From the NCBI GenBank assembly GCA_009885205.1, contig VFLE01000055.1:11236-75235 (forward strand): a stretch of 64,000 nt of DNA, in the 5' to 3' direction. Shown piece by piece: positions 3,276-38,181 of this stretch. Position numbers and translations under genes: made by a program. This stretch comes from Candidatus Shapirobacteria bacterium (GTDB taxonomy: Bacteria; Patescibacteriota; Microgenomatia; UBA12405). The notes below the pieces were generated by a model. That model was not told the origin of the DNA and made no database searches. It saw only the letters and a program-made list of their open reading frames with translations. Every line of letters begins with the position of its first letter. Within the stretch, counting starts at the first letter, position 1.

Positions 3276-4019
3276 TTATAAAACAAAGAATAGTATTCCA
3301 GATAAAATCAGTGTATAAACCCCAAAATACCAAAAGGAGTTTTTTTGGAGGATTTTGCGAAGATAGTAGAGGGCAATGATTCCAGTTATGGTGGTTAGAA
3401 TAAAAGTTGTGATAGAAACCGGATTAAAAAAAGAAGTAGTAAGCAACATTTTGTAATCGAGAACAATGGCGCCGAGGGAAGCGATAATAAAGAGGCAGAA
3501 AGAAAAATTAAAGGCTGCCAATGGGGCTAGACCGAGCAACAGGGCCGTGGCAATGGTGGCACCGGACCGGGAAACGGCGGGTAAGATGGCAACTGCTTGC
3601 ATTAATCCTATGATAAGGGCGGATTTGTAATTTAGTTTATTATTCTTAATTTTTATAAACTTGGTAGAGAACAATAAAATAGTTGTAATTAAAAATTCGT
3701 AAGGCATGAATTTGACACTGGAAAAGGTTGATTCGATAAAATCACGAAAAAATATTCCGGCAATAATAGCAGGGATAGTGCCAACGATTATATATTTTAA
3801 ATTGTCAAAAAAATATTTGATTTGATTCCTGAAGAAAAAAATGACCGAAAAAAGAGTGGCGGTGTTTAAAAATATATCGAGGGAAAGTGATGGAGTCAGG
3901 CCGAAAAAATGTTGAAGTAAGTTTAAATGGCCTGAAGACGAAATTGGCAAAAATTCAGTAATGCCTTGGGTGAGACCGAGGAGATAGGATTGAAGTGCAG
4001 ACATGGAAAATAATAGCAC
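3276..4019 (-). CDS. uppP: Undecaprenyl-diphosphatase (UppP/BacA)
   Basis: 247 aa polytopic membrane protein with the BacA signature LGLTQGITEFLPISSSGHL. Confidence 0.85.
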   Translation of the reverse strand: MLLFSMSALQSYLLGLTQGITEFLPISSSGHLNLLQHFFGLTPSLSLDIFLNTATLFSVIFFFRNQIKYFFDNLKYIIVGTIPAIIAGIFFRDFIESTFSSVKFMPYEFLITTILLFSTKFIKIKNNKLNYKSALIIGLMQAVAILPAVSRSGATIATALLLGLAPLAAFNFSFCLFIIASLGAIVLDYKMLLTTSFFNPVSITTFILTTITGIIALYYLRKILQKNSFWYFGVYTLILSGILFFVL

Positions 4020-8130: not shown

Positions 8131-8985
8131 TTATAGAAAAATAATAATTATTCCTATTAAGGCAATTATGGCTGCGATAGTTTTAGGTAACAGATTCGTT
8201 TCTCCATATTTCTTATTTGATATCCATAAAGAGAAAAAAGTTTTGAAAGAAATCAATGCAGAAACAATACCTACTGGAAGTAATTTATACCCAAAATTAA
8301 TTGAGACAAATGAGATTGCAGCCATTAAACCGACTAAAAGTAACAATTTGTTGGCTGATTTGTTTTCTAATCGATAGAGACTACCTTTTTTAAATAAAAT
8401 AATTATGTAATTAACAATTATTAAGCCCAAGGTAAGGTAGACAGCATAGGTAAATGGTGACGATAGTTTTATTGATTGTTTGTTAAATAAATTAATGGCG
8501 GTGACAAATAAATAATAAAAAATAATTTCTAAATAATTTATGCTTACTTTTTTACTTTTTAGTTCGAATAAGGTTAATAAAACGAAAGCAAAAATAATTA
8601 CACCGATACCAATAAGTTGTTTACCAACTAACAACTCATTAAAAAATATTGCTCCAGCAATAGTAGTAAATAAAATTTCTAGAAAAGCTAAGCCTTCGAC
8701 AGATGAAAAATCATGTTTTTGATATAGATATACTTGATATATTCCAAAAAAGACATTTACCAATAAAGTTGCAATAAACCAGGTAATAAATGCACCACTA
8801 ACTTCAAAAAGATTGGTATTAAAAATTAAGGCGATTAATAATATAAATGGAAACGAAGTAACCCGATAAAATAAATTAACCGATTCTTTGGAAACTTTAT
8901 ATTTACTTAAGTCTTTAACGAAAGAATATCTAAATGTATATCCAATTGAAGCTAGAACAGTAAGAAGTGCACCTAAAATGCTCAC
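8131..8985 (-). CDS. Polytopic membrane protein, EamA/DMT-like permease (occupies the usual map position)
   Basis: 284 aa with about 10 predicted TM helices in two halves. It overlaps adk by 4 nt. Confidence 0.45.
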   Translation of the reverse strand: MSILGALLTVLASIGYTFRYSFVKDLSKYKVSKESVNLFYRVTSFPFILLIALIFNTNLFEVSGAFITWFIATLLVNVFFGIYQVYLYQKHDFSSVEGLAFLEILFTTIAGAIFFNELLVGKQLIGIGVIIFAFVLLTLFELKSKKVSINYLEIIFYYLFVTAINLFNKQSIKLSSPFTYAVYLTLGLIIVNYIIILFKKGSLYRLENKSANKLLLLVGLMAAISFVSINFGYKLLPVGIVSALISFKTFFSLWISNKKYGETNLLPKTIAAIIALIGIIIIFL

Positions 8986-9566
8986 TTTATTTTTTCAATC
9001 TCTTTAACTATATCTTCAAAAATAGGTTCGATGGGGCGATTGCCGTTGATATCGATGAATTTTCCTTTACCTACAAAATAATCTTTGATACCTTCGATGT
9101 TGTCATCATAAAATTTTTGACGATTGGCAATATCCTGTGGGGTATTGTCAGTACGAGTTTTGTCTTGAAATTCTTCACCGGCTTTATCTCGGCGGTCTTT
9201 TATTTGTTGGAAAGATAGAGTTAAATGAATTAAAGTAGTCAGTGGGGCATTGTTTTTGCGTAAATAAAATTCAACAATACGGCCTTGATTTAAAACTCGG
9301 GGAAAACCATCGACGATAAAATTTTTATAGTCGAGTGATTTTAGGTGGGAAATTAAAACATCGAAAACTAAATCATCGGGGACGAGTTTTCCATTATCAA
9401 TATATGATTTGGCTTCGATACCAAAACCAGATTTTTTAGCAATTTCGTCACGAAGCAACTGCCCCATGGAAATATGGGTTAAATTATATTTTTCTGCCAC
9501 CATTTTGGCCTGAGTGGTTTTGCCACAACCTGATGGACCGATGATGAAAAGATTTAGAGGTGTCAT
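8982..9566 (-). CDS. adk: Adenylate kinase
   Basis: P-loop IIGPSGCGKTTQAKMVAEKY and the AMP/ATP-binding regions. Confidence 0.9.
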   Translation of the reverse strand: MTPLNLFIIGPSGCGKTTQAKMVAEKYNLTHISMGQLLRDEIAKKSGFGIEAKSYIDNGKLVPDDLVFDVLISHLKSLDYKNFIVDGFPRVLNQGRIVEFYLRKNNAPLTTLIHLTLSFQQIKDRRDKAGEEFQDKTRTDNTPQDIANRQKFYDDNIEGIKDYFVGKGKFIDINGNRPIEPIFEDIVKEIEKIK

Positions 9567-9619
9567 ATTGAGTTAGTATAACGAATTGTGGATTGATTTA
9601 CAGATGGTTGATTATATTC

Positions 9620-9700
9620 GTAGAGACGCCATATATGGCGTCTCTACATGGAATCGAAAAGGCCGATTATTGGGGAGTAAACGCATCGAAACAAACATTG
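9620..9700. repeat. Composite repeat: family-A palindrome (core ccatatatgg) + 21-nt linker + conserved 32-nt tail (copy 2 of 3)
   Basis: Perfect 28-bp palindrome at 9620-9647, then attggggagtaaacgcatcgaaacaaacattg. It lies between secY and adk inside the r-protein operon. Confidence 0.85.
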
Positions 9701-9712
9701 ATAGGGAATTTT

Positions 9713-10993
9713 TTAATACGATAATTTTTCGTAATGATGCATTTGGACGACGTTTTCGATCTTACGGGTTAATTCGAGAATTACTGAGACGACGATGAGA
9801 ACACTGGTTCCACCAACAGTTAGAGAGGTGACACCAGTCATATTTTGAATTATAGATGGAACAATAGCGATGAGACCTAAAAATACAGCACCAACTAAGA
9901 CAACTCGATTTAATAAAAATTTAAGTCGATTTTCGGTGGCAATACCAGGACGGATACCGGGCATAAATCCGCCAGATTTGCGAAGCTCGTCGGCGACGTC
10001 TTTTGGTTTAAAGACCACCGAGGCATAGAAAAAAGTAAAGGCCAAGACTAATATAAAATAGAAAATAATATAAACATAACTGGTTTGGGAAAAAGTTTTG
10101 GTCAATTGAGAGGCAAATGAGGCAATGGCTGAGTTACTATTATTAACCAAGGCCTGACCTAGTAATGAGGGCAATGAAGCGAGAGAGACGGCAAAAATAA
10201 TGGGCATGACGCCGGCAACATTGACCTTCATGGGTAAATAAGTTACTTGGGCTCGTTTGGCATAATTGATGGGAATACGCAAAATGGCCTCTTCAACCAT
10301 GACTACGGCTAAAATAATACCAAAGGCCAGAGCAGCAAATAATAATATATTAAATAATGTTTCGGGATTGGAAAAATCGGATAAGGCTAAAGTTTGGAAA
10401 AGACCGACAGGTAGACGAGAAATGATACCAGCAAAGATAATAATAGAGATACCATTACCCACTCCAAAATCATTAATTAGCTCACCTAAAAATATCATAA
10501 TCATGGTTCCGGCGACCATGGAGGTGATCAGTGAGGTCATGGCGAGTATATTTAAACTGCCGATGATATTTTGAGAGTGAAGAATGCCGTACATAGCAAA
10601 AGCCTGAAAAGCGGCCAATGGAATGGTAATTATTCGGGTATATTGGTTGATTTTGGCTCGACCATACTCCCCTTCTTTTTGTAAAGCTTTTAACTCAGGG
10701 ATAACAAAAGCCAACATTTGGAGCATAATTGAGGCGTTGATGTAAGGATTTAAACCCAAAGCGGCAATAGAAAAATTGGCTAGGGTTCCGCCGGAAAATA
10801 TATCTAGCAATGATAATAGTTGATTTTGAGCAAAAAAAGATCGAAGTAAGGTAAAATTTACCCCAGGGACAGGAATATGGGCAATAAAACGAAATAAAAC
10901 TAAAATACCCAGAGTAATTAAAATTTTCTTTTTGAGAATAGGGGTTTTGAAGCCCTCAAGGTAAAGAGATAAGGATTTGACCAAATAGTTCAT
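9713..10993 (-). CDS. secY: Preprotein translocase subunit SecY
   Basis: 426 aa with 10 TM helices and conserved SecY motifs. It lies between rplO and adk. Confidence 0.9.
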
Positions 10994-11424
10994 GCTTCTA
11001 TCTTAGCACGAGCAGCAGCTGACAATTTAACATCTGTAAATGTTAATTTTTTGGTTAATTTACCAGCTGACAAAATTTTGACACCGAATTTTTGACGACG
11101 AATGTCGAGTTTGGGAAATTTTTCAAAAATAGTTTTAACTGAGACTATCTCACCAGTTTTGTAGTTCTTTTCAATTTGGGCTAGGGTAATAATCTCGGGT
11201 TTTGGCAGAGCATTGGTACGATGTTTACCCCTAAGGAAAGGCAATCGCTTGATCCAACCCTTTTTGATTTTGGTGCCATCAAAGGTTAATTTGACTTTAC
11301 CTCTAACTTTGCGGCCTTTGGCACCACGACCAGTAGTATGACCACCAACGCCAGAACCAATGCCACGACCAACTCTTTTTTGGGCTTTGTCAGTTGTTTT
11401 GGTTAAATTACTTAGAGTATCCAT
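10990..11424 (-). CDS. rplO: 50S ribosomal protein L15
   Basis: [21 protein letters not shown] motif. The start is taken as the internal Met (11424), giving a 4-nt gap to rpsE. There is no rpmD (L30) between rpsE and rplO. Confidence 0.85.
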
Positions 11425-20627: not shown

Positions 20628-22733
20628 CTATTTTGTACTAGTCTTAATAGTTAACTTTTCTTGTATATCACGAGGCACTGGATCGTAGTGTGATGGTTCC
20701 ATGTAGAATGAACCGCGACCTTGGGTGAGCGATCGGATGACAGTGGCGTAACCGCGGACGTTGTCGAGAGGGATAGTAGCAGTAATGGTAGTAAAACCAA
20801 AAGAGTCAGTAGTTCCGCCAATTTGACCACGACGAGAAGACAAATCGCCAATAACTGTGCCCATAAATTCGGAAGGAACGGCGACCTCCATTTTCATGAT
20901 TGGTTCGAGTACTAACGGATTGGCAAAACCAAAGGCATCTTTGATAGCATAGTTACCGGCTAATTTAAATGCTTGTTCGGATGAATCAACATCATGATAG
21001 GTACCGTCATAAACAGTGACTTTAATATCAGTACAGGGATAACCAGCGATAATACCCTTGGTTAGGGTTTCGCGAACACCTTTTTCGATGGCGGGAATAA
21101 AGTTGCTAGGAATGGCACCACCCTTGACGGCGTTAACAAACTCGATGCCTTCACCTCGGGCTTTGGGCTCGACATGAATTTTACAGTGTCCATATTGACC
21201 ATGACCACCAGATTGGTGGATATATTTACCCTCACCATCGGCATTAATCGAAATAGTTTCCCGATAAGCGACTTGAGGGGCACCTGTTTTGACATTGACG
21301 CCAAATTCACGACGGAGACGATCAACAATAATTTCGAGATAGAGTTCACCCATACCAGCGATGATGGTTTGACCAGTTTCATGATTGAAAGAGACTTGAA
21401 AAGTAGGATCTTCTTGAGATAACTTATTTAAGGCTTGACCCATTTTTTCCTGATCATCGGCAGTTTCTGGCTCAATAGAGAGGGAAATAACTGGTTCGGG
21501 AAACTGAATTGGGGATAAAGAAATAGGATGATTTTTATCGCAAAGAGTGTCGCCGGTGTAAGAATCTTTAAGGCCGATACAGGCAATTATTTCTCCAGCA
21601 TAACCCTCTTCTAGACCTTCGCGCTTGTCAGCGTGCATGAGCAGTAAACGGCCGATTCTTTCGGACTTTTGACGAGTTGAGTTATAAACTTCGGTACCAG
21701 TTTTGATGGTGCCCGAGTAAACACGAACATAGGAAAGAGTCCCAACGTGGGCATCGGTTTGAACTTTAAATAAAAGAGCCGAAAGAGGTTCATTATTCTC
21801 TGGTTTACGATAAAGTTTTTCACCAGTGCTTACGTCAAATCCCTCGATTGGAGGAAGGTCTAAAGGAGAAGGTAAGTAGTCGATAATAGCTTCTAAAATA
21901 GGATGAATACCTTTGTTGCGCCAGGCGGCTCCACAGTAAACTGGAAATAATTTTAATTTGATAGTGGCGGCACGGAGGGCAGATTTTAGTTCTGGTATAG
22001 AAATTTCCTCGTCATTTAAAAATTTTTCCATTAATTGTTCGTCTTCGCCAGCAATTTTTTCAACCATGACCGCTCGGGCTTTTTTGGCGGCTTCTAAATA
22101 CTCGGGAGTGACGTCTTTGACCGTAAATTCCATACCTTCTGGATCTTTGTCGTAGACAATCATTTTCATTTCCATTAAATCGATGACCCCAACATGGGCG
22201 TGTTCTTCACCAATTGGTAGAACAACAGGAACAATAGGACAGCGAAGTTTTTGGGTTATAGAATCGAGAGTGTTTTGAAACGAGGCCCCAACTTTGTCCA
22301 TTTTATTGACAAAAGCAATCCGAGGCACGCCATATTTGTCAGCTTGACGCCAGACAGTTTCAGATTGGGCCTGAACCCCAGCATTGCCGTCAAAAATCAT
22401 GATAGCGCCATCGAGAACGCGAAGTGAGCGTTCGACTTCGGCGGTAAAGTCAACGTGGCCGGGAGTGTCGATAATGTTGATACGATGATCTTTAAAAAAG
22501 GTGGTAATACAGGCAGATTGGATGGTGATTCCCCTTTCCCTTTCTTGGACCATGGAATCGGTAGTGGTAGTTCCTTCATCAACAGAACCAATTTTGTGAA
22601 TTTTACCAGTATAAAAGAGTAAACGTTCGGTAGTAGTAGTTTTACCGCCATCGATATGAGCAATAATACCGATGTTTCGGACTTTGTTCATGGGAACTGA
22701 ACGTTTTTTGGTGACAACAATTGCATCTGGCAT
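20628..22733 (-). CDS. fusA: Elongation factor G
   Basis: 701 aa with the G domain (AHIDGGKTT, DTPGH) and domains II-V. The true start may be the internal Met at 22691 (MNKVRNIGIIAH). Confidence 0.95.
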   Translation of the reverse strand: MPDAIVVTKKRSVPMNKVRNIGIIAHIDGGKTTTTERLLFYTGKIHKIGSVDEGTTTTDSMVQERERGITIQSACITTFFKDHRINIIDTPGHVDFTAEVERSLRVLDGAIMIFDGNAGVQAQSETVWRQADKYGVPRIAFVNKMDKVGASFQNTLDSITQKLRCPIVPVVLPIGEEHAHVGVIDLMEMKMIVYDKDPEGMEFTVKDVTPEYLEAAKKARAVMVEKIAGEDEQLMEKFLNDEEISIPELKSALRAATIKLKLFPVYCGAAWRNKGIHPILEAIIDYLPSPLDLPPIEGFDVSTGEKLYRKPENNEPLSALLFKVQTDAHVGTLSYVRVYSGTIKTGTEVYNSTRQKSERIGRLLLMHADKREGLEEGYAGEIIACIGLKDSYTGDTLCDKNHPISLSPIQFPEPVISLSIEPETADDQEKMGQALNKLSQEDPTFQVSFNHETGQTIIAGMGELYLEIIVDRLRREFGVNVKTGAPQVAYRETISINADGEGKYIHQSGGHGQYGHCKIHVEPKARGEGIEFVNAVKGGAIPSNFIPAIEKGVRETLTKGIIAGYPCTDIKVTVYDGTYHDVDSSEQAFKLAGNYAIKDAFGFANPLVLEPIMKMEVAVPSEFMGTVIGDLSSRRGQIGGTTDSFGFTTITATIPLDNVRGYATVIRSLTQGRGSFYMEPSHYDPVPRDIQEKLTIKTSTK

Positions 22734-22849
22734 AGGTTAAATAAATTTAAAATTTAGAATTTAAAAAACTAATAAAATAAAAAAATGAGCACTAAAAAGC
22801 CACATTTAAGTGAAATATGATAACACGAAAATATAAAAATTAATTGGTT

Positions 22850-23143
22850 TTAAATCTTTTTTTGTAAAATTCGATAAAAAGTTATGATTGAATATGGAAT
22901 AATTAAAAAAAATAAATATTCTTCAATGGGTAAATAGCCAATTGTTAAACCAATTAAACCAGTACCATTAAAACTCCAATGGCCACGATAAACAGCAAAA
23001 CTGTCCCACAGGGTACCAATAACAAAAAAAATTAAAGGAATTTGCAAACTTTCTTTCCGAGACTGATATAGATGAACGTGTAATTTCCAGTCAAAATATA
23101 GGGTAAATAAAAAAACTAACAATAAAATTGATATATATTCCAT
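22850..23143 (-). CDS. Small membrane protein with lycopene-cyclase-domain-like features
   Basis: 97 aa with 3 TM helices and a PIEEYLFFLIIPY motif, resembling the PxEE(x)xFF motif of CrtYc/CrtYd-type lycopene cyclase domain proteins. This is recalled from memory and no HMM search was run. Confidence 0.45.
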   Translation of the reverse strand: MEYISILLLVFLFTLYFDWKLHVHLYQSRKESLQIPLIFFVIGTLWDSFAVYRGHWSFNGTGLIGLTIGYLPIEEYLFFLIIPYSIITFYRILQKKI

Positions 23144-23161
23144 AGCTTTATTTTAAAGTAT

Positions 23162-24376
23162 ATGATTTATAATTGTTCAATGAATATTGCCATTGTTGGA
23201 GCGGGGATGACGGGATTGGTGGCAGGGTACAGGCTGAGTCAGAAGGGCCATGGGGTAACTATTTTTGAAAAAAGTAATGATATTGGGGGATTGATGGGGG
23301 GATTTAAAATTGGAAAAACTTCACTCGAAAAAGCCTATCATCATATTTTTTCGACAGACAATTATATTATTGATTTGGCAAAAGAGTTAAATTTATTTAA
23401 CAAAATATCGTGGCATGAGGAAAAGACGGCTTTGTTTTATGAGGGTGTGGTTTACCCATTTATGGGGATAATTGACCTATTAAAGTTCAAACCGTTGGAT
23501 TTTATCTCTAAAGTTAGACTGGGTTTAGTTAAAATATGGTTACAAAAAGATAATAATTGGCAAAAGTATGAGAACGAATTGGCCTATTTATGGATGAAAA
23601 AGTGGTGTGGTGAAAAGGCTTATAAAGTAATTTGGGAGCCGTTATTGCGAGGCAAGTTTCATGAAAAATATAAAGAAGTGTCCATGGCCTGGCTCTGGGC
23701 GCGGATTCACACTCGAGGAAATTCATCTAAACTAGGCTATTTTGAAGGAGGATTTAGAATTATGGCGGATGCACTTGCGAAACGGATAAAAGATAAAAGA
23801 GGAGAGATTAAACTAAACTTCAATGTTCAAACTTCAAACTTCAAAACAGAAGAATTTGACAAAGTTTTATATACAGGGGCAAGCAAAGAAATAGATTATT
23901 TGGGGGCGATTTGTGTAATATTTACCAGCAAACAAAGTTTAAGTAAATTTTATTGGCATAATATTAATGACAATAAATCCCCTTTCTTGGCTTTTATTCA
24001 ACATACTAATTTGATTGATAAAAAACAGTACGGGGGAAAACATGTTTATTACATGGGGACTTATATTCCAAATGAAGGTGGATTGATGGACAAATCAGAT
24101 GATCAAATTAAAAAACAGTTTTTTGATTATTTAAAAAATATATTTCCAAAATTTGATGAAAAAAAGATTGAGGAAAATTGGGTATTTAAGTTTAAAAATG
24201 CACAACATATAGTGACAAAAAACTACAAAACACCAATCCGCCAGATGGCGGACAAACTTCAAAAAAATATTTATCAATCTAATTTTGCGCAGATTTATCC
24301 GGAGGACCGTGGCACAAACTTTGCCGTCCGCGAGGGAAATAAAATTGCTAAAGTGATATTATCTAGCCATGAATAA
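23162..24376 (+). CDS. FAD/NAD(P)-binding oxidoreductase of the amine-oxidase / UDP-galactopyranose-mutase / CrtI superfamily
   Basis: 404 aa. N-terminal Rossmann IAIVGAGMTGLVAGYRL, ...EKSNDIGGL, an HHIF motif (Glf-like) and a C-terminal YPEDRGTNFAVREG. It is divergent from the 22850 ORF with an 18-bp spacer. Confidence 0.6.
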   Translation: MIYNCSMNIAIVGAGMTGLVAGYRLSQKGHGVTIFEKSNDIGGLMGGFKIGKTSLEKAYHHIFSTDNYIIDLAKELNLFNKISWHEEKTALFYEGVVYPFMGIIDLLKFKPLDFISKVRLGLVKIWLQKDNNWQKYENELAYLWMKKWCGEKAYKVIWEPLLRGKFHEKYKEVSMAWLWARIHTRGNSSKLGYFEGGFRIMADALAKRIKDKRGEIKLNFNVQTSNFKTEEFDKVLYTGASKEIDYLGAICVIFTSKQSLSKFYWHNINDNKSPFLAFIQHTNLIDKKQYGGKHVYYMGTYIPNEGGLMDKSDDQIKKQFFDYLKNIFPKFDEKKIEENWVFKFKNAQHIVTKNYKTPIRQMADKLQKNIYQSNFAQIYPEDRGTNFAVREGNKIAKVILSSHE

Positions 24377-24878
24377 AATTGATTTGATAATTGGTGATTG
24401 GAATTTATTTTTAAATAAAATTTTTTCTAATTTAAAATCAGTAAATATTGATGTTAAAGAATTTGACCTCGACCACATAGCTTATCGGGCAACAACAAAT
24501 GAGATGTTTGAATCAATGTCGTTAAAACTTGCGGAAATCGGAAATAAAATCCATCGAATAATAATTCGAAATCGTTTTATAGACATATATCAATTGAATG
24601 ATGAAATAGAATACAAAAATAGAAAAATTAAATTTATTGAGTTAATGGCACCAGCAGAAGGTGATCAATTTAGGCCAGGACTGGAACATGTCGAATTTGT
24701 AATTCAAGATAATCTCTATGGATTTGTGAAAAAACACAATAATATTAACTGGAATGTAAAATCAATTGACCGAGAAATTGGGGCTGAAGTCGGAATACTA
24801 TTTGGAAATGGAGCTAGTGTGAAATTCAAAAACCAAAATTTACTCAAAATCTTTCGGTTGGAAGACCAAAAGAATTAA
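24369..24878 (+). CDS. Hypothetical protein, possible VOC (glyoxalase-like) fold
   Basis: 169 aa. LDHIAYRAT and GLEHVEFVIQD are paired beta-alpha-beta-beta-beta-like metal-site motifs. This is a weak call. Confidence 0.35.
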   Translation: MNKIDLIIGDWNLFLNKIFSNLKSVNIDVKEFDLDHIAYRATTNEMFESMSLKLAEIGNKIHRIIIRNRFIDIYQLNDEIEYKNRKIKFIELMAPAEGDQFRPGLEHVEFVIQDNLYGFVKKHNNINWNVKSIDREIGAEVGILFGNGASVKFKNQNLLKIFRLEDQKN

Positions 24879-25738
24879 ATTAATTGCTTCTTTAATTCTA
24901 AAAGACCTTCGATAAGGGTTTTTGGAGAATAGCCAAAGTCGGTGATAAATTTTTGATTGGATAAAGATAAATTTGGGGCGTAGGGGCGGGCGTTGGGAGT
25001 CTTTAAATAATCGGCTAACGACGACGGTTGAACTAAGTTTTGGTCAAAATTAAAAGTTTGAGCGATTAATTTACCCATTTCATAAACTGATTGAGAAGAA
25101 GAACCGACTAGATGATAAATACCTGATTTGGTGTCATTAATTATTTTTCGTAGACCTAGGGCAATATCGTCGATAAAAGTAGGAGTGGTGATTTGATCGG
25201 TAAATAATTTACAGGTTTCGTTATTTTTTAATTTACTTATTATTTTTCTAACTAAATCTATTTTTAAATCGAACTTGGCGCGGTAGGGTGAGGCGATGCG
25301 AATAATAGTAAAATTGTTGGGAATTAATTTTTCGGCCAAATCTTTGGTTTGGGCATACCAGTCTAAAGGCTTTGGAATATCAGTTTCGATGTAGGGAGTG
25401 TCTTTTGAACCATCAAAAACATAGTCGGTGGAAATATGGATTAAATGTTTGCCGTACTTTTGACATAAATTAACAATATTTTGAGTGCCGACAACGTTGA
25501 GTTGATAGCAGAGACCGTTTTTATCCCCTTTTTGATCCCAGGCGGCATTGGTGTCAGTAAAGGCGGCTAAATGTAAAACAACATTGCCAGTAAAATGGGC
25601 AAAGACTGATTCTAAAGTCTCTGGTTTTAAAATATCAAAACCAGTATCGATGGATAAATCGGTAAAATTTATGTCAGGATTTAGCTCGACTATACGAGAA
25701 CCAACTAGACCAGATAAACCTGTACCAATTATTTCCAT
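24875..25738 (-). CDS. rfbD: dTDP-4-dehydrorhamnose reductase
   Basis: GTGLSGLVGSRI Rossmann fold, STDYVFDG and YAQTK. The start is set at the internal Met (25738), giving an ATGGAAATAA overlap with the rfbC stop. The track ORF extends to 25828. Confidence 0.8.
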   Translation of the reverse strand: MEIIGTGLSGLVGSRIVELNPDINFTDLSIDTGFDILKPETLESVFAHFTGNVVLHLAAFTDTNAAWDQKGDKNGLCYQLNVVGTQNIVNLCQKYGKHLIHISTDYVFDGSKDTPYIETDIPKPLDWYAQTKDLAEKLIPNNFTIIRIASPYRAKFDLKIDLVRKIISKLKNNETCKLFTDQITTPTFIDDIALGLRKIINDTKSGIYHLVGSSSQSVYEMGKLIAQTFNFDQNLVQPSSLADYLKTPNARPYAPNLSLSNQKFITDFGYSPKTLIEGLLELKKQLI

Positions 25739-26271
25739 GAATCGAAAGTGGGTAATAATTTGTCTTTGTCGGATAAGACGGGAACAACATCCAGAGGCCA
25801 AGTGACATTTAAGGTTAGGTCGTTCCAAATAATTCCCCGTTCGGATGGTTTATCATAATAATTATCGCATTTATAGGAAAAAATTACGTCTGGAGTGAGA
25901 GTTATAAAACCGTGAAGAAAATCACGGGGGATAAAAAGCATATGATTGTTTTCACCTGATAATTCAAACCCCTCCCAAACACCAAAAGTAGGCGAGTTGG
26001 GTCGCATATCAACGGCGACATCAAAAATTTTACCTTGAATTACTCTAACTAATTTGGCTTGGGATGATTCCCCCGCTTGTAAATGTAAACCTCGGAGAGT
26101 ACCAATTTCTGCTGAAAAAGATTGATTATCTTGGACAAATTTGGCAGTAATACCAGCTTGGTTAAAAACTTTCTCACTATATGATTCAAAAAAGTTGCCA
26201 CGATTGTCACCAAAAACTTGGGGTTTGATCAAAAATAAATCTTTGATTTTTGATGACTCAATAAATTCCAT
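25729..26271 (-). CDS. rfbC: dTDP-4-dehydrorhamnose 3,5-epimerase
   Basis: 180 aa cupin. RGLHLQ...QAKLVRVIQGKIFDVAVDMRPNSPTFG. Confidence 0.85.
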   Translation of the reverse strand: MEFIESSKIKDLFLIKPQVFGDNRGNFFESYSEKVFNQAGITAKFVQDNQSFSAEIGTLRGLHLQAGESSQAKLVRVIQGKIFDVAVDMRPNSPTFGVWEGFELSGENNHMLFIPRDFLHGFITLTPDVIFSYKCDNYYDKPSERGIIWNDLTLNVTWPLDVVPVLSDKDKLLPTFDSWK

Positions 26272-26273
26272 TT

Positions 26274-27641
26274 TTATATAGTTGGAGTTGGAGTGGGCTT
26301 AGGAGTACTAGTAGCAACCTTGGTTGGGGTGACGGTTGTTTTTGGAGTTGGAGTGGTAGCAGTAGTGGGGGCGGCAGCACCGGTTTTGAGGTCGGTACCA
26401 ATGACAAAGACGACATCATAAGTGGAATTTGCCTTAAGATCGGTAATAGTAGCACCAGTGAAATCAGAAATCTTGCTGGTAAAATAGGCCGAAGAAGTAG
26501 AAAGTGATGGTTTTATTTGAATAGTATTGGCAGTAACTTTTTCGGTGGCATTGCCAATGTTGACACTAGTAAAACCTAATTTAGTTAATTTTTCCTTAAT
26601 CACGGCGGCTTGACCACTAATATCAGTGGCATTTAAGACCTGTAATTTTAGAGATTTTGATGGTTCAGTAACAATAATAGATGGGGTAGGAGTAACATCG
26701 ATGACATCAGTGGGAATGGGGGTAATCATGGCAACTTTAGGATCGGTGATATCACTGGGGTTATTATTTTGATTAAGAGCAAACCAGACGATAACGGCGG
26801 CAATAATAGCGGTAAATAAAGCAACTGCGATGATGGGGAGAATATTTTTTTTGTTTTCCATAGGTGCCCCTATTATACCAGCAACCGGAAGGGGAAGGTT
26901 GCCCTGAAATTTTAAATCAACAACTACCTGTGAATCGGTATAAATTGATTTTTCGATGTCGGGAACGTCAAAAATTGGTTCGAGAGAGGTAGGGAGAAAA
27001 ACCTTGGTAGCTGGGGTACCAAAATAGGCTTGAGAGTAATTGATAATCTTTTTGATATCGGGAAGTGATTTTTTGACGATTGAGGTGAGGTAGACCTTGC
27101 CTTGAAAACCCAAGGTGACGAGATATTCTGATTCGAGTGGGTAAAAAACAAAATAAGGTTTATCATAAAAGTTGTCAAAAAGTTTTATTAATCCCTCAGA
27201 CAAGGCAAAATATGATAGTTTTAAGTTTAGAGCGGTTAGATTTTTTAGGAGAGGGGCCAGTTTGACTTGATCAAAAATACGAGCTTGGATTAAGGTTTTG
27301 TCGCCTTGGGGGACAATTTCGTAAGTAACTTGGGAGGGAATAATTTCAAAGGGAGCAGTACCCTTAGCCAAGGTAACGACTTCGTCGAGGCTGACAGAGG
27401 TGACTTTTTCATCATAAACAAAAGATCGGGTAAAAACAACACTATCATCAATTAAGACCGAAGCTCCCAATATTTTTTTACTTTTTAAATAGACGGATAA
27501 ACGGGCTAATTCGGATTCTGTTTGCTCTGCCCATAAATTTATTTCAAAAGAAATTGAATTGTCATTATTTTTGGCAAAATAAATTGATAGATTTTCGGCC
27601 TTGGGCCAAAAGACAATTTTGGAGAGATTGGTTGATGACAT
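26274..27641 (-). CDS. Membrane protein with a C-terminal LytR_C-like extracellular domain and a Pro/Thr-rich tail
   Basis: 455 aa. A cytoplasmic N-domain, one central TM helix (ILPIIAVALFTAIIAAVIVWF), then VLNATDISGQAAVIKEKLTKLGFTSVNIGNA (LytR_C-like) and a ...TPTPKPTPTPTI tail. It is co-directional with rfbCD. Confidence 0.5.
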   Translation of the reverse strand: MSSTNLSKIVFWPKAENLSIYFAKNNDNSISFEINLWAEQTESELARLSVYLKSKKILGASVLIDDSVVFTRSFVYDEKVTSVSLDEVVTLAKGTAPFEIIPSQVTYEIVPQGDKTLIQARIFDQVKLAPLLKNLTALNLKLSYFALSEGLIKLFDNFYDKPYFVFYPLESEYLVTLGFQGKVYLTSIVKKSLPDIKKIINYSQAYFGTPATKVFLPTSLEPIFDVPDIEKSIYTDSQVVVDLKFQGNLPLPVAGIIGAPMENKKNILPIIAVALFTAIIAAVIVWFALNQNNNPSDITDPKVAMITPIPTDVIDVTPTPSIIVTEPSKSLKLQVLNATDISGQAAVIKEKLTKLGFTSVNIGNATEKVTANTIQIKPSLSTSSAYFTSKISDFTGATITDLKANSTYDVVFVIGTDLKTGAAAPTTATTPTPKTTVTPTKVATSTPKPTPTPTI

Positions 27642-27731
27642 AAATTAATGATAGCAGAAAAAAATAAAAATATTTTGTGATTGGGTGATAAGTTTTTGAT
27701 TTTGTTTACTAATTTTGCTTGGGATATAGTG

Positions 27732-27759
27732 GTAGAGACGCCCCGCGGGGCGTCTCTAC
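27732..27759. repeat. REP-like perfect palindrome, family A (core ccccgcgggg), identical to 3098-3125
   Basis: 28-bp perfect inverted repeat, upstream of the 26274..27641 gene. Confidence 0.9.
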
Positions 27760-27826
27760 ATGAAAATTCCAAACAACAATAATTTACGAAAGTCAAAAGA
27801 CCACCCAAACAAAAATTGCTAAAGAA

Positions 27827-28105
27827 CTATTTACAATCAGTGATATCAAGTTTTACGGCCTCAGAGTTTCGAAGAATACAGCCAGTTGAACTAAGTTGCG
27901 TTATACCCCGACAACCGTCTAATATACCTGCACCAATAATTTGTTCTACTGGAATAACACATTTAGCTTTACCAACGGTATCTTCTTGATATGGTTCTCG
28001 ACTAACAATGGGAACTAATTTTGCAATTTCTTCGTCTGAAAGACCTCGTAAAACTGGGCAAAAATTGCGAACGTCAGCTAATTTATGCATAGCATATATT
28101 AACAT
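27827..28105 (-). CDS. Small cysteine-containing hypothetical protein (about 90 aa)
   Basis: The track ORF runs 27827..28144, but its first 13 codons are the rpsG terminator hairpin. The start is therefore taken as an internal Met (MLIYAMHKLADV...). The product has 5 Cys and no recognised domain. Confidence 0.3.
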   Translation of the reverse strand: MLIYAMHKLADVRNFCPVLRGLSDEEIAKLVPIVSREPYQEDTVGKAKCVIPVEQIIGAGILDGCRGITQLSSTGCILRNSEAVKLDITDCK

Positions 28106-28135
28106 AACCAAAAATCCCCCATTTCTGGGGGATTT
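28104..28135 (-). terminator. Intrinsic terminator downstream of rpsG
   Basis: Minus strand: AAATCCCCCA-gaaa-TGGGGGATTT followed by TTTTGGTT. This separates rpsL-rpsG from the inserted island and fusA-tuf. Confidence 0.6.
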
Positions 28136-28153
28136 AAAAATCAATTGATTTAT

Positions 28154-28636
28154 TTACCATCGCATGTGGGCGAAGGCTTTGTTGGCTTCAGCCATACGTT
28201 CGACTTCGGTGCGTTTGCTGATTGAAGCACCTTCGTTGTTGAGAGCTGATTGGAGCTCGGCGGCGAGCTTGAGACCAAAAGAGTGATATTGTTTATTGGC
28301 CTTAGCGCGGGCAGAATTAATTAACCAGCGAATAGCCAGGGAATATTGACGACTACCTCGAACTGGAGTGGGAACTTGGTAGACAGCACCACCAATGCGA
28401 CGAGGACGGACCTCGACTTTTGGTTTAATATTGTCCAAAGCTTGTTCGAGAGTGACCAGAATATCTTCACTTTTAGTTTCTTTTTTAAGAATTTCTAGGG
28501 CTTGATAAACTTGTTTTTGGGCAGCTGACTTTTTGCCGTCCATAATTGAGCGGTTAATAAGCTTGGCGACTATTTCACTGTGATAAAGAACATCGGGTTC
28601 TAAAATTCGTGGAGTTATTTGACCTTTTCTGGACAT
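28154..28636 (-). CDS. rpsG: 30S ribosomal protein S7
   Basis: MSRKGQITPRILEPDVLYHSEIVAKLINRSIMDGKKSAAQK. The start is set at the internal Met. Confidence 0.9.
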   Translation of the reverse strand: MSRKGQITPRILEPDVLYHSEIVAKLINRSIMDGKKSAAQKQVYQALEILKKETKSEDILVTLEQALDNIKPKVEVRPRRIGGAVYQVPTPVRGSRQYSLAIRWLINSARAKANKQYHSFGLKLAAELQSALNNEGASISKRTEVERMAEANKAFAHMRW

Positions 28637-28663
28637 AAATTTAAATTTCAAATATCAAATTTA

Positions 28664-36250: not shown

Positions 36251-37147
36251 TTAAAAATCGAATTCTTTAGTAATTTTTTGGGTCTTTTTATCAACATCAA
36301 ACCAATTAAAAGTGGCGGTATGGTCATCTTTAATTTCATAAACATGAATCACCCATGCAGATTTGTCGTCTGTATCGTGGTCATACTCAATAATAGTATT
36401 TGGAACTGTTTTTCGATAATTTATGACTTCAGGAAGTTGAGAAACTAAATACATTGCTGTTTGTTGATATGCAAGTTCAGCCATGTCAATGAATTTAAAG
36501 GTGGAGAGGATTTGGTTAAAATCAGACTGAAGTAAAGTTTCTGCAGGATATTTGGCAATCGTAATAATATTATTTTTATAAAACAAATAATAGGTGATGC
36601 CTGTACCATTCCCCTGCCATTCTAAATATTTTGCTGGATAACCTCCAATAGTTAGACCATTTGTTGAGATAACTTTCCCTCCAATTCCTGAAGGATCGTC
36701 TTCTATACTCTTTAGTTGTTTGGCAAAATATTCTTCTAAAGTCTGATTGGCTGTATTTGGACTAACCCATATTTCAACTTTTAATTCATTGCCTTGCATT
36801 GAATAGCCTTTACGATTAGTTAAATCAACTGGACTCATAAGTGAAAGATATAATGTTTCACTGTTATTTGTAGGAGAATTTTCAGTTAGAGAATAATTTT
36901 TAGGATAATCAAAATTAAATCCAAAATCTGTATTTATATATTTGCCGTTATAATTTACGATTGGTAATGGAGTTGTAATTGCGGTTGTTTGGGATAAATC
37001 TACAACTGGATTGGTTATTGGGGTAATAGTTGAAATTTCAGTAGTTTTTACTGATTGGCGGCCGAGGAGAAAAACTCCGGTGAGAAATAAGACAAAAGCG
37101 AGGGAGATTATAATTAAATTTAAATAATTTGTTTTTGGTTTGTCCAT
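36251..37147 (-). CDS. Membrane-anchored hypothetical protein, paralog 1 (signal-anchor + extracytoplasmic domains)
   Basis: The start is taken as MDKPKTNYLN (37147), which aligns with paralog 2 MDKPKPNYLN. The track ORF begins at an upstream TTG. One N-terminal TM helix is followed by an ILSTFKF motif. Confidence 0.6.
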   Translation of the reverse strand: MDKPKTNYLNLIIISLAFVLFLTGVFLLGRQSVKTTEISTITPITNPVVDLSQTTAITTPLPIVNYNGKYINTDFGFNFDYPKNYSLTENSPTNNSETLYLSLMSPVDLTNRKGYSMQGNELKVEIWVSPNTANQTLEEYFAKQLKSIEDDPSGIGGKVISTNGLTIGGYPAKYLEWQGNGTGITYYLFYKNNIITIAKYPAETLLQSDFNQILSTFKFIDMAELAYQQTAMYLVSQLPEVINYRKTVPNTIIEYDHDTDDKSAWVIHVYEIKDDHTATFNWFDVDKKTQKITKEFDF

Positions 37148-37188
37148 ATTAAAAGAGTAACATTTTTTGAAGGACAATAGGTCAAATT

Positions 37189-38181
37189 TTAGGGATTGAC
37201 CACTGTTTTTTGAAGAGTCTCAGGATTGATTGAATACAGATTTGTAATATTTTGGTCGTAAGGAATTTCTTTAACATTAAGTTGATTTGTTTTTGACCAA
37301 TTTAAACAATATGAAGATTGAATTCCAGAAAGTAATGTTTTACGTTGCTGTAGGTCAAAAATGGTGTAACCCCAGTAACCGGAAGTGCCGTATTCTATAC
37401 ACGCAAATTTTTTATTTGGTGAAAATATCAATTGACCTGGATAATCAACTGGCTTTTTGTCAAAGATATATTTTTTGTTGTTAAAAATAAAATATGCAGA
37501 GTAATCTTTGACGTCAATTTGGAGTTCCTTGCTATTTGGTAAATTAATTAAATTTACTATATTTTCGGTGAATTTAAAGGTAGAGAGGATTTCCTGATAT
37601 ATATTAATATCATTAGAATTTATGACACCTTCTTTTGGTTGAAGTGTTAAAACGTAGATATTGTTACCGTTCTTAAAATATGTAGAAAATACCGAAAAAC
37701 CAGCAGCATTATAGTTTTCTTGACGTTGAATACAATTTAATCCAGCTATGACAGTTTTTTTGGTTGAAATAACAGCAATTGAGGATGTACCTTCATATTC
37801 AGTTGAGTTTTGTTTATCTTTTTTTGACAAATACTCCGAAATTGTTTTTGAATTGTCTTCTGTAATATCGATAAGAAAGATCGATTGATTTGGTGAAGAA
37901 ATATACACATAATTTCCAGTTTCTAAAAGAGCTTCTTTGTTTGCATTCCAACTTGATGGATAATCAAAGGAAAAAATATTTTTACTGTCAGTATATGTTT
38001 TCCAATTTTGGATTGGATCAGTGACACTGGTTGGTATTGCCGTTGTTTGGGGTAAAACGGTGATGGGGTTGGGAATGGTTTTTACTGACTGACGGCCGAG
38101 GTAGAAGACACTGACAATAAATAAAACAAAAGCAAGGGAGATTAAAATTATATTTAGATAATTTGGTTTGGGTTTGTCCAT
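37189..38181 (-). CDS. Membrane-anchored hypothetical protein, paralog 2
   Basis: 330 aa. N-terminus MDKPKPNYLNIILISLAFVLFIVSVFYLGRQSVKT is about 80% nt-identical to paralog 1. It shares the EILSTFKF motif. Confidence 0.6.
   Translation of the reverse strand: MDKPKPNYLNIILISLAFVLFIVSVFYLGRQSVKTIPNPITVLPQTTAIPTSVTDPIQNWKTYTDSKNIFSFDYPSSWNANKEALLETGNYVYISSPNQSIFLIDITEDNSKTISEYLSKKDKQNSTEYEGTSSIAVISTKKTVIAGLNCIQRQENYNAAGFSVFSTYFKNGNNIYVLTLQPKEGVINSNDINIYQEILSTFKFTENIVNLINLPNSKELQIDVKDYSAYFIFNNKKYIFDKKPVDYPGQLIFSPNKKFACIEYGTSGYWGYTIFDLQQRKTLLSGIQSSYCLNWSKTNQLNVKEIPYDQNITNLYSINPETLQKTVVNP

Follow-up and report, generated by a model that had tools for sequence, protein, structure and literature searches.

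Two divergently transcribed genes in a genome of Candidatus Shapirobacteria raise the question of whether a protein resembling half of a lycopene cyclase and an adjacent flavoenzyme work together. The genes, here called Lyc97 and FAD404, lie in a 64,000-nucleotide stretch of contig VFLE01000055.1 (assembly GCA_009885205.1), and this whole stretch is referred to as the window. A first-pass annotation had treated them as a divergent pair that might put the cyclase-domain fold to a non-carotenoid use, such as modification of a polyprenyl lipid carrier or glycolipid. Both ORFs lie where that annotation placed them. Comparison with related loci indicates that Lyc97 and FAD404 are probably neighbours through a lineage-specific insertion and do not make up a conserved functional module. 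Most likely they are separate proteins, each an uncharacterised variant of a known superfamily. The features concerned are as follows.

20628–22733, minus strand: fusA, encoding elongation factor G (EF-G); in relatives, the direct divergent neighbour of the flavin adenine dinucleotide (FAD) oxidoreductase gene
22850–23143, minus strand: Lyc97, 97 aa, three transmembrane helices, a single lycopene-cyclase domain of the CrtYc type with PIEE at residues 72–75
23144–23161: 18-bp spacer between the divergent start codons, as read from the sequence
23162–24376, plus strand: FAD404, a 404-aa FAD oxidoreductase of the PRK07233 family (NF005560) with an amine-oxidase/phytoene-desaturase/PPOX fold

Lyc97 is encoded on the fusA strand, 116 bp upstream of fusA, and may be co-transcribed with it. 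Its start codon lies 18 bp from that of FAD404, or 36 bp if M7 is taken as the FAD404 start; alignments with FAD404 homologs begin at residues 6–9, which makes M7, at 23180, the probable true start. A promoter and terminator scan found no excess, with 14 promoter-like matches between 22500 and 25000 compared with 11.7 ± 3.7 in shuffled sequences.

Lyc97 and FAD404 are probably not a conserved pair

The FAD404 family was sampled at 80 metagenomic loci (L091–L170), whose proteins are 46–78% identical to FAD404, and at four others (L001–L004). Searches with tblastn found Lyc97 at 0 of the 80 metagenomic loci and 0 of the 4 others, and no Lyc97 remnant was recovered from the Lyc97-less gaps between fusA and the FAD gene, even at E = 10. 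Conversely, no FAD404 homolog occurs near Lyc97 at 18 other loci from Candidate Phyla Radiation (CPR) bacteria and DPANN archaea, within available flanks of up to 10 kb. The neighbours of Lyc97 homologs at those loci are unrelated housekeeping genes, including aminoacyl-tRNA synthetases, TsaD, ScpA, Dus, LemA with an M48 peptidase, TatD, and others. The functional divergent pair of the first-pass annotation thus did not survive the co-occurrence check that this annotation had itself called for, made across these 84 FAD loci and 18 Lyc97 loci, and a single contig, L171, is arranged alike.

The place that Lyc97 occupies is a short junction with variable content. EF-G is encoded divergently upstream of the FAD gene at 56 of the 64 loci with enough flank, and the gap between the two start codons measures 28–210 bp at 49 of 66 loci. 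Other gaps carry genes for DUF202 (4 loci), DUF2164 (3 loci), NUDIX (2 loci), HIT, an MFS transporter, or a CoA-transferase/GNAT fusion, along with unknown open reading frames (ORFs). At L092, which encodes an FAD protein 78% identical to FAD404, a tyrosine-recombinase-like ORF (1090–1914, read from sequence) stands where fusA is normally found, as one would expect if the junction were a recombination hot spot. The short junction has taken in unrelated cargo in different lineages, and the cargo in this genome and in L171 is the CrtYc-like half-cyclase gene.

Small ORFs of 82–87 aa recur in this slot (L004 7703–7951, L109 9693–9950, L110 9645–9908, L111 5451–5699, L102, L106, and L107), encoding DUF202 at four loci and DUF2164 at three. 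A recurring small membrane partner of FAD404 was considered and rejected, given this split between two families and the heterogeneity of the remaining cargo.

Near Lyc97 homologs, two flavoenzymes were seen. At L014 (Doudnabacteria; 8754–10297), the start of the Lyc97 homolog overlaps the stop of a Pyr_redox_2 flavoprotein gene, and at L017 a DAO-family gene lies two genes away. A recurring flavoenzyme partner of Lyc97 was rejected, and both cases were treated as chance because the enzymes belong to different families and are absent elsewhere. At L017, L018, and L020 (approximately 9426–11200), which are Yanofskybacteria loci and one Saccharibacteria locus, the Lyc97 homolog sits between LemA and the M48 peptidase.

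Several points weigh against a lineage-specific insertion with no functional meaning. L171, a 3.2-kb contig carrying FAD, divergent Lyc97, and fusA genes, is the sole related contig with the arrangement of the window, to which its proteins are 73% (Lyc97), 66% (FAD), and 85% (EF-G) identical. The Lyc97-less loci L001 and L093 are nearer to the window than L171 is (EF-G 95–96%, FAD 74–78%), which means that the insertion either dates far back and has been lost several times or arose twice at one and the same site, and either course hints at some selective value. Pairing was judged by adjacency at loci and not by genome-wide co-occurrence, and the roles assigned to both proteins rest on context and homology. 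Synteny among Microgenomates may also largely mirror vertical inheritance. Finally, for both proteins the nearest relatives of established function work on isoprenoid chains, making a shared substrate class possible.

A rival idea is that Lyc97 and FAD404 act jointly on a non-carotenoid isoprenoid, for example the undecaprenyl-phosphate carrier or a glycolipid, with the flavoenzyme desaturating or saturating the chain and the cyclase-domain protein cyclising or hydrating its end. The close spacing of the start codons speaks for such joint action, as do the identical gene order in L171 (other loci are closer to the window), the ties of the FAD family to undecaprenyl-phosphate GT2, GtrA, and GT-C genes, and the isoprenoid-chain substrates of PDS and HpnE, the best fold and sequence relatives of FAD404. 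The window also encodes an undecaprenyl-diphosphatase (BacA/UppP; 3276–4019), indicating that a polyprenyl-phosphate carrier is in use. Against joint action stand the lack of co-localisation at all the other loci described above and the occupation of the slot elsewhere by functionally unrelated genes. The two families also differ greatly in size, with more than 4000 FAD homologs listed and approximately 26 (90% identity) or 55 (50% identity) clusters in the Lyc97 clade, so most of the flavoenzymes must work without Lyc97. We consider joint action unlikely. The pair hypothesis retains a low probability solely because of L171, and insertion of Lyc97 into a variable junction remains our preferred explanation. 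A proposed two-enzyme lipid-modifying module is accordingly not upheld, which removes a false lead.

Lyc97 is an orphan CrtYc-like half-cyclase

Profile hidden Markov model (HMM) searches, which the first-pass annotation had called for, settled the families of both proteins: PF18916 and TIGR03462 for Lyc97, and PF01593 and NF005560 for FAD404. Lyc97 scores 34.7 bits against PF18916 (Lycopene_cyc; gathering score 27) and 65.5 bits against TIGR03462 (cut-off 39.4). Its AlphaFold2 model, with a predicted local distance difference test score of 91, has helices at residues 2–20, 29–52, and 73–94, and the protein carries the motif P72-I-E74-E75-YLFFLIIPY, in which, among 23 homologs, E74 and E75 never vary and P72 reaches at least 90% conservation. 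The PxE(E/D) motif has been described as the universal signature of CrtYc/Yd-type cyclases (PMC12016392). Scores, predicted helices, and motif together bear out the initial description of a three-helix lycopene-cyclase-domain protein. No sequence relative of Lyc97 was found in the PDB. A weak, sub-threshold match to the Pfam family DUF2878 (18.9 bits, E 0.002) was also recorded.

In domain, three-helix size class, and PxE(E/D) motif, Lyc97 resembles CrtYc and CrtYd, their fused form CrtYcd, and the N-terminal domain of the fungal CrtYB/CarRA proteins. When aligned with actinobacterial cyclase pairs, it sides with CrtYc, sharing the CrtYc-specific motifs WDxxAxxxGHWxF and PxEEYLFFL, and not with CrtYd, which has PxEDLLFGF. 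Unlike these cyclase systems, Lyc97 has a single copy of the domain, with neither a tandem CrtYd-type partner nor a fusion. One lycopene-cyclase-domain copy was found in the 64-kb window and at each CPR and DPANN locus, whereas a tandem CrtYd partner is present at 38 of 40 actinobacterial loci.

The carotenoid context is also missing. In line with the first-pass annotation, which saw no phytoene synthase or prenyltransferase in the window, no carotenoid gene is present there; tblastn searches with CrtB, CrtI, CrtE, and CrtYd found no match in the window or at 21 CPR and DPANN loci (315 kb). The same searches over 67 lycopene-cyclase-domain loci outside CPR and DPANN (Actinomycetota, Bacteroidota, and others) returned CrtB at 32, CrtI at 35, CrtE at 19, and CrtYd at 36. 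Lyc97 thus truly belongs to the domain family but lacks two defining features of cyclase systems, namely two domain copies and a carotenoid context. It is an orphan CrtYc-like half-cyclase from a small clade whose hosts, unlike those of the CrtYc/CrtYd systems, are CPR bacteria and DPANN archaea, with no crtB, crtI, or crtE nearby.

The small size of this clade is evident from large-scale searches. An HMM built from the Lyc97 clade scores its members at 89–159 bits and canonical cyclases at no more than 72 bits. A HMMER pass over 1.84 billion cluster representatives recovered 1375 members of the lycopene-cyclase-domain family, among which only ~55 single-domain clusters (50% identity) of approximately 100 aa score above 75 bits; close homologs of Lyc97 make up 26 clusters at 90% identity in a set of 5.8 billion proteins. 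Twelve GTDB loci with Lyc97 homologs come mostly from CPR bacteria (Doudna-, Yanofsky-, and Saccharibacteria) and DPANN archaea (Woesearchaeota and Nanohaloarchaea). Within the clade (L011–L022), identity between CPR and DPANN proteins is 46–64%, and two of these metagenome-assembled genomes are labelled ‘Gammaproteobacteria’. That the clade is common to CPR and DPANN points to an exchange of genes among ultra-small episymbionts.

CPR bacteria and DPANN archaea thus share a lycopene-cyclase homolog of half the usual size whose catalytic motif is intact. The absence of carotenoid genes at the CPR and DPANN loci examined points to the fold being used for something other than carotenoids, or to genes passing between episymbionts. 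Lyc97 is probably a homo-oligomeric acid-base enzyme acting on an isoprenoid other than endogenous lycopene, a proposal in which our confidence about the substrate is low. It would probably assemble with itself and protonate a terminal isoprene double bond of a non-carotenoid or scavenged isoprenoid. A more far-reaching conjecture, to which we assign little likelihood, is that stand-alone CrtYc-like proteins of CPR and DPANN organisms are homo-oligomeric end-group cyclases or hydratases of isoprenoids, acting on a non-carotenoid substrate such as the undecaprenyl- or dolichyl-phosphate carrier or on host-derived isoprenoid lipids, and that in this Shapirobacteria-like lineage Lyc97 together with the PRK07233 flavoenzyme would remodel the lipid carrier on which wall glycans are assembled.

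It is also conceivable that the two genes are a remnant or scavenging carotenoid module, in which host-derived carotenoids would be desaturated by FAD404, in the manner of CrtI, and cyclised by Lyc97 serving as a lycopene cyclase. Lyc97 does retain PxEE and the CrtYc-type motifs, and the best structural match of FAD404 is a phytoene desaturase. This is very improbable given that FAD404 falls far below the curated models for carotenoid desaturases (see below), that no CrtYd partner, crtB, crtE, or crtI was found in the window or at any CPR or DPANN locus searched, and that the FAD gene has a conserved place beside envelope and translation genes across the lineage. The host lineage is, moreover, non-pigmented and fermentative.

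FAD404 belongs to a widespread flavoprotein family of no known function

FAD404 scores 413 bits against NF005560 (PRK07233; cut-off 252) and 67 bits against PF01593 (Amino_oxidase). The motifs that the first-pass annotation had picked out, GxGxxG, HHIF, and YPEDRG, are all present, as GAGMTG (residues 13–18), AYHHIF (58–63), and YPEDRG (379–384), and are invariant or nearly so across the family. Its assignment to the Glf/CrtI superfamily holds in the sense that FAD404 belongs to the amine-oxidase/phytoene desaturase (PDS)/UDP-galactopyranose mutase (UGM) superfamily, while by curated HMM cut-offs the protein is a member of neither Glf nor CrtI. Five characterised families were tried and rejected, with scores of 23.3 bits against a cut-off of 303.75 for Glf/UGM (TIGR00031; residues 8–81 at the N-terminus only), 29 against 238 for CrtI (crtI_fam, TIGR02734), 27 against 569 for PDS (TIGR02731), 54 against 283 for HpnE (TIGR03467), and 38 against 98 for PPOX.

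By structure, the best match of FAD404 is PDS (5mog); UGM has a similar fold and ranks below both PDS and PPOX. A sequence-profile comparison puts the uncharacterised Pyrococcus protein PF1083 nearest among solved structures. PDS, HpnE, and PPOX have the GxGxxG and HHIF-type N-terminal FAD motif in common with FAD404, but are only 14–18% identical to it, score far below the cut-offs of their models, and occur in squalene, heme, or carotenoid contexts that FAD404 does not have. In particular, no squalene-synthase-like gene, as would be expected in an HpnE context with hpnC and hpnD, was seen at any locus examined.

The family is strongly conserved and its invariant residues are unusually polar or aromatic (WxWARIHxR, YWHNIND, HTN, and PEDRG). 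A 438-aa subfamily from Saccharibacteria, Dojkabacteria, and other Patescibacteria is 49–59% identical to FAD404 and matches the full NF005560 model at 481 bits; FAD404 and its Microgenomates relatives are ~30–40 residues shorter in the middle of the protein. Among characterised families, HpnE is the best match to the 438-aa form, over its full length at 91 bits. NF005560 is itself named ‘hypothetical protein’ and PRK07233 has no member with a known function. Literature searches on PRK07233, on the lycopene-cyclase domain in Patescibacteria, and on FAD/GtrA genes in Saccharibacteria returned nothing relevant.

Operons in other CPR phyla point to a probable role in envelope-glycan assembly

The FAD gene stands in informative company outside Microgenomates. 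At L160 (13–4097), a GT2 gene is followed after 4 nt by the FAD gene, then by GtrA and an overlapping PMT_2-like GT-C gene, and at L175 (5095–11991) the order is rmlB-like, rmlA-like, GT2, FAD (4-nt overlap), GtrA, and two further GT2 genes. GT2 and/or a DUF2298 membrane protein gene flank the FAD gene at L176 (5955–10524), L169 (8665–13837), and L149, and a GT1 gene follows it at L177. The GT2 proteins encoded beside 438-aa FAD genes score 283 bits against PgfS and 160–182 bits against ArnC, an undecaprenyl-phosphate transferase. These operons, with their ArnC/PgfS-like GT2, GtrA, and PMT_2/DUF2298-type genes, resemble a Gtr-type three-component system with an extra flavoenzyme.

Because the FAD genes of other CPR phyla show translational coupling to GT2 genes of the ArnC/PgfS type and stand beside GtrA flippases and GT-C-like proteins, FAD404 most likely has an envelope role, and we infer that it acts on the polyprenyl-phosphate carrier or its linked sugar during envelope-glycan assembly. 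It would work at the membrane surface, on either the carrier or the polyprenyl-phosphate-linked sugar, as wall glycopolymers are put together. The layout of GT2, FAD, and GtrA/GT-C genes is similar to that of known polyprenyl-phosphate glycosylation systems (GtrA/GtrB/GT-C, ArnC/ArnT, and streptococcal PgfS or GacI-L), although no GT2, GtrA, or GT-C gene was found in the 64-kb window around FAD404 itself. We know of no such flavoenzyme in the Gtr, Arn, or Pgf systems. A comparable layout exists for DprE1 of the decaprenyl-phospho-arabinose pathway, a flavoenzyme that acts on a lipid-linked sugar and adjoins GtrA-like and GT-C genes, although its fold differs in being of the VAO type. Of the polyprenyl-linked envelope chemistry first suggested for the pair, the flavoenzyme part is thus supported indirectly, through homolog operons with GT2, GtrA, and PMT_2/DUF2298 genes, and the link between cyclase and flavoenzyme is not.

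A sugar-nucleotide substrate is a serious rival for FAD404, given its unusually polar and aromatic invariant residues and its rml neighbourhood. Under this hypothesis, the protein would be a UGM-like pyranose/furanose mutase or a sugar oxidase supplying the rml/GT2 pathway, and not a lipid-chain enzyme. The genes rmlD, rmlC, or rmlB neighbour the FAD gene at 31 of 45 loci, L175 combines an rmlA-like gene with GT2, ~300 residues of E. coli UGM (1i8t) can be aligned with the family profile, and the invariant motifs could bind sugar or phosphate. Yet the UGM model matches poorly and at the N-terminus only, PDS and PPOX are closer in structure than UGM, and the FAD gene is convergent with the rml genes, in a separate operon. 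The C-terminal FAD motif is, moreover, of what we take to be the amine-oxidase/PDS type. On balance we find a sugar-nucleotide enzyme doubtful, and favour action on the polyprenyl-phosphate carrier or its linked sugar.

The PRK07233 flavoprotein is thus widespread in CPR, located in the str-operon region in one phylum and coupled to undecaprenyl-phosphate glycosyltransferases in others. Among Microgenomates, its identity to FAD404 (~46–79%) overlaps the identity of ribosomal protein S7 (~58–95%). As CPR bacteria have few biosynthetic pathways, studying the enzyme is a sensible way to find out how their envelopes are constructed.

A conserved island splits the str operon

The window has a G+C content of ~35–42% and contains the CPR ribosomal clusters rpoB/C, str, S10, spc, and alpha; the homologs most similar to the proteins it encodes carry the label Candidatus Shapirobacteria or Microgenomates. 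The str operon is broken by ~5.4 kb between rpsG and fusA, where a 105-aa ORF, LytR_C, rmlC, rmlD, YecM/VOC and FAD404 (both on the opposite strand), and Lyc97 follow one another. The island features beyond Lyc97 and FAD404 are the following.

24369–24878, plus strand: YecM/VOC-fold protein, 169 aa (PF06185, 81 bits)
24875–25738, minus strand: rmlD, dTDP-4-dehydrorhamnose reductase (PF04321, 173 bits from residue 31 of a long ORF)
25729–26271, minus strand: rmlC, dTDP-4-dehydrorhamnose 3,5-epimerase (TIGR01221, 216 bits; cut-off 155.75)
26274–27641, minus strand: membrane protein with a C-terminal LytR_C domain (PF13399, 35 bits)
28154–28651, minus strand: rpsG (S7), bordering the island on its upstream side

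An island with LytR_C, variable rml genes, and a PRK07233 gene is conserved across Shapiro- and Woesebacteria-type genomes (window 22734–28153; L001–L004; L091–L170). On three long contigs (L001, L002/L003 counted together, and L004), rpsG and LytR_C come first, then rmlA/B/C/D and a few small ORFs, and lastly the FAD gene with fusA divergent from it; none of these contigs has a lycopene-cyclase-domain gene. Of the 45 loci whose flank beyond the FAD gene is long enough, 36 have rml or LytR_C downstream; LytR_C, at 28, is the most constant island neighbour and lies beside rpsG. Since the island splits the str operon (rpsL, rpsG, fusA, and tuf), fusA must be transcribed from a promoter of its own within the short divergent gap. 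The idea that insertions between the FAD gene and rmlD carry glycan genes was not supported; judged by ORF listing alone, with no family search, the insertions seem to hold unrelated ORFs, including an apparent ATP-synthase operon.

The rhamnose pathway fragment named in the first-pass annotation is confirmed, with rmlC and rmlD as the only part of the dTDP-L-rhamnose pathway (rmlABCD) in the window; rmlA and rmlB were not found in its 64 kb and are present in the islands of relatives. The rmlD product scores 159 bits against TIGR01214, below the cut-off of 224, and its gene is convergent with the FAD404–YecM unit. An 8-nt overlap between the FAD404 stop and the start of the YecM/VOC gene hints that their translation is coupled. 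YecM is absent by tblastn from all 80 related metagenomic FAD loci and is a second lineage-specific addition beside the flavoenzyme gene.

No Pfam or NCBIfam family matches the 105-aa ORF (27827–28144, minus strand) that separates rpsG from the LytR_C gene, and an ORF with a weak HATPase_c match stands at the equivalent position in L004. The Pfam scan covered part of the window's ORFs. It returned no match for one of two adjacent paralogous ORFs of 308 and 330 aa (36251–37177 and 37189–38181, minus strand), which have a common N-terminal membrane anchor (MDKPK.NYLN...).

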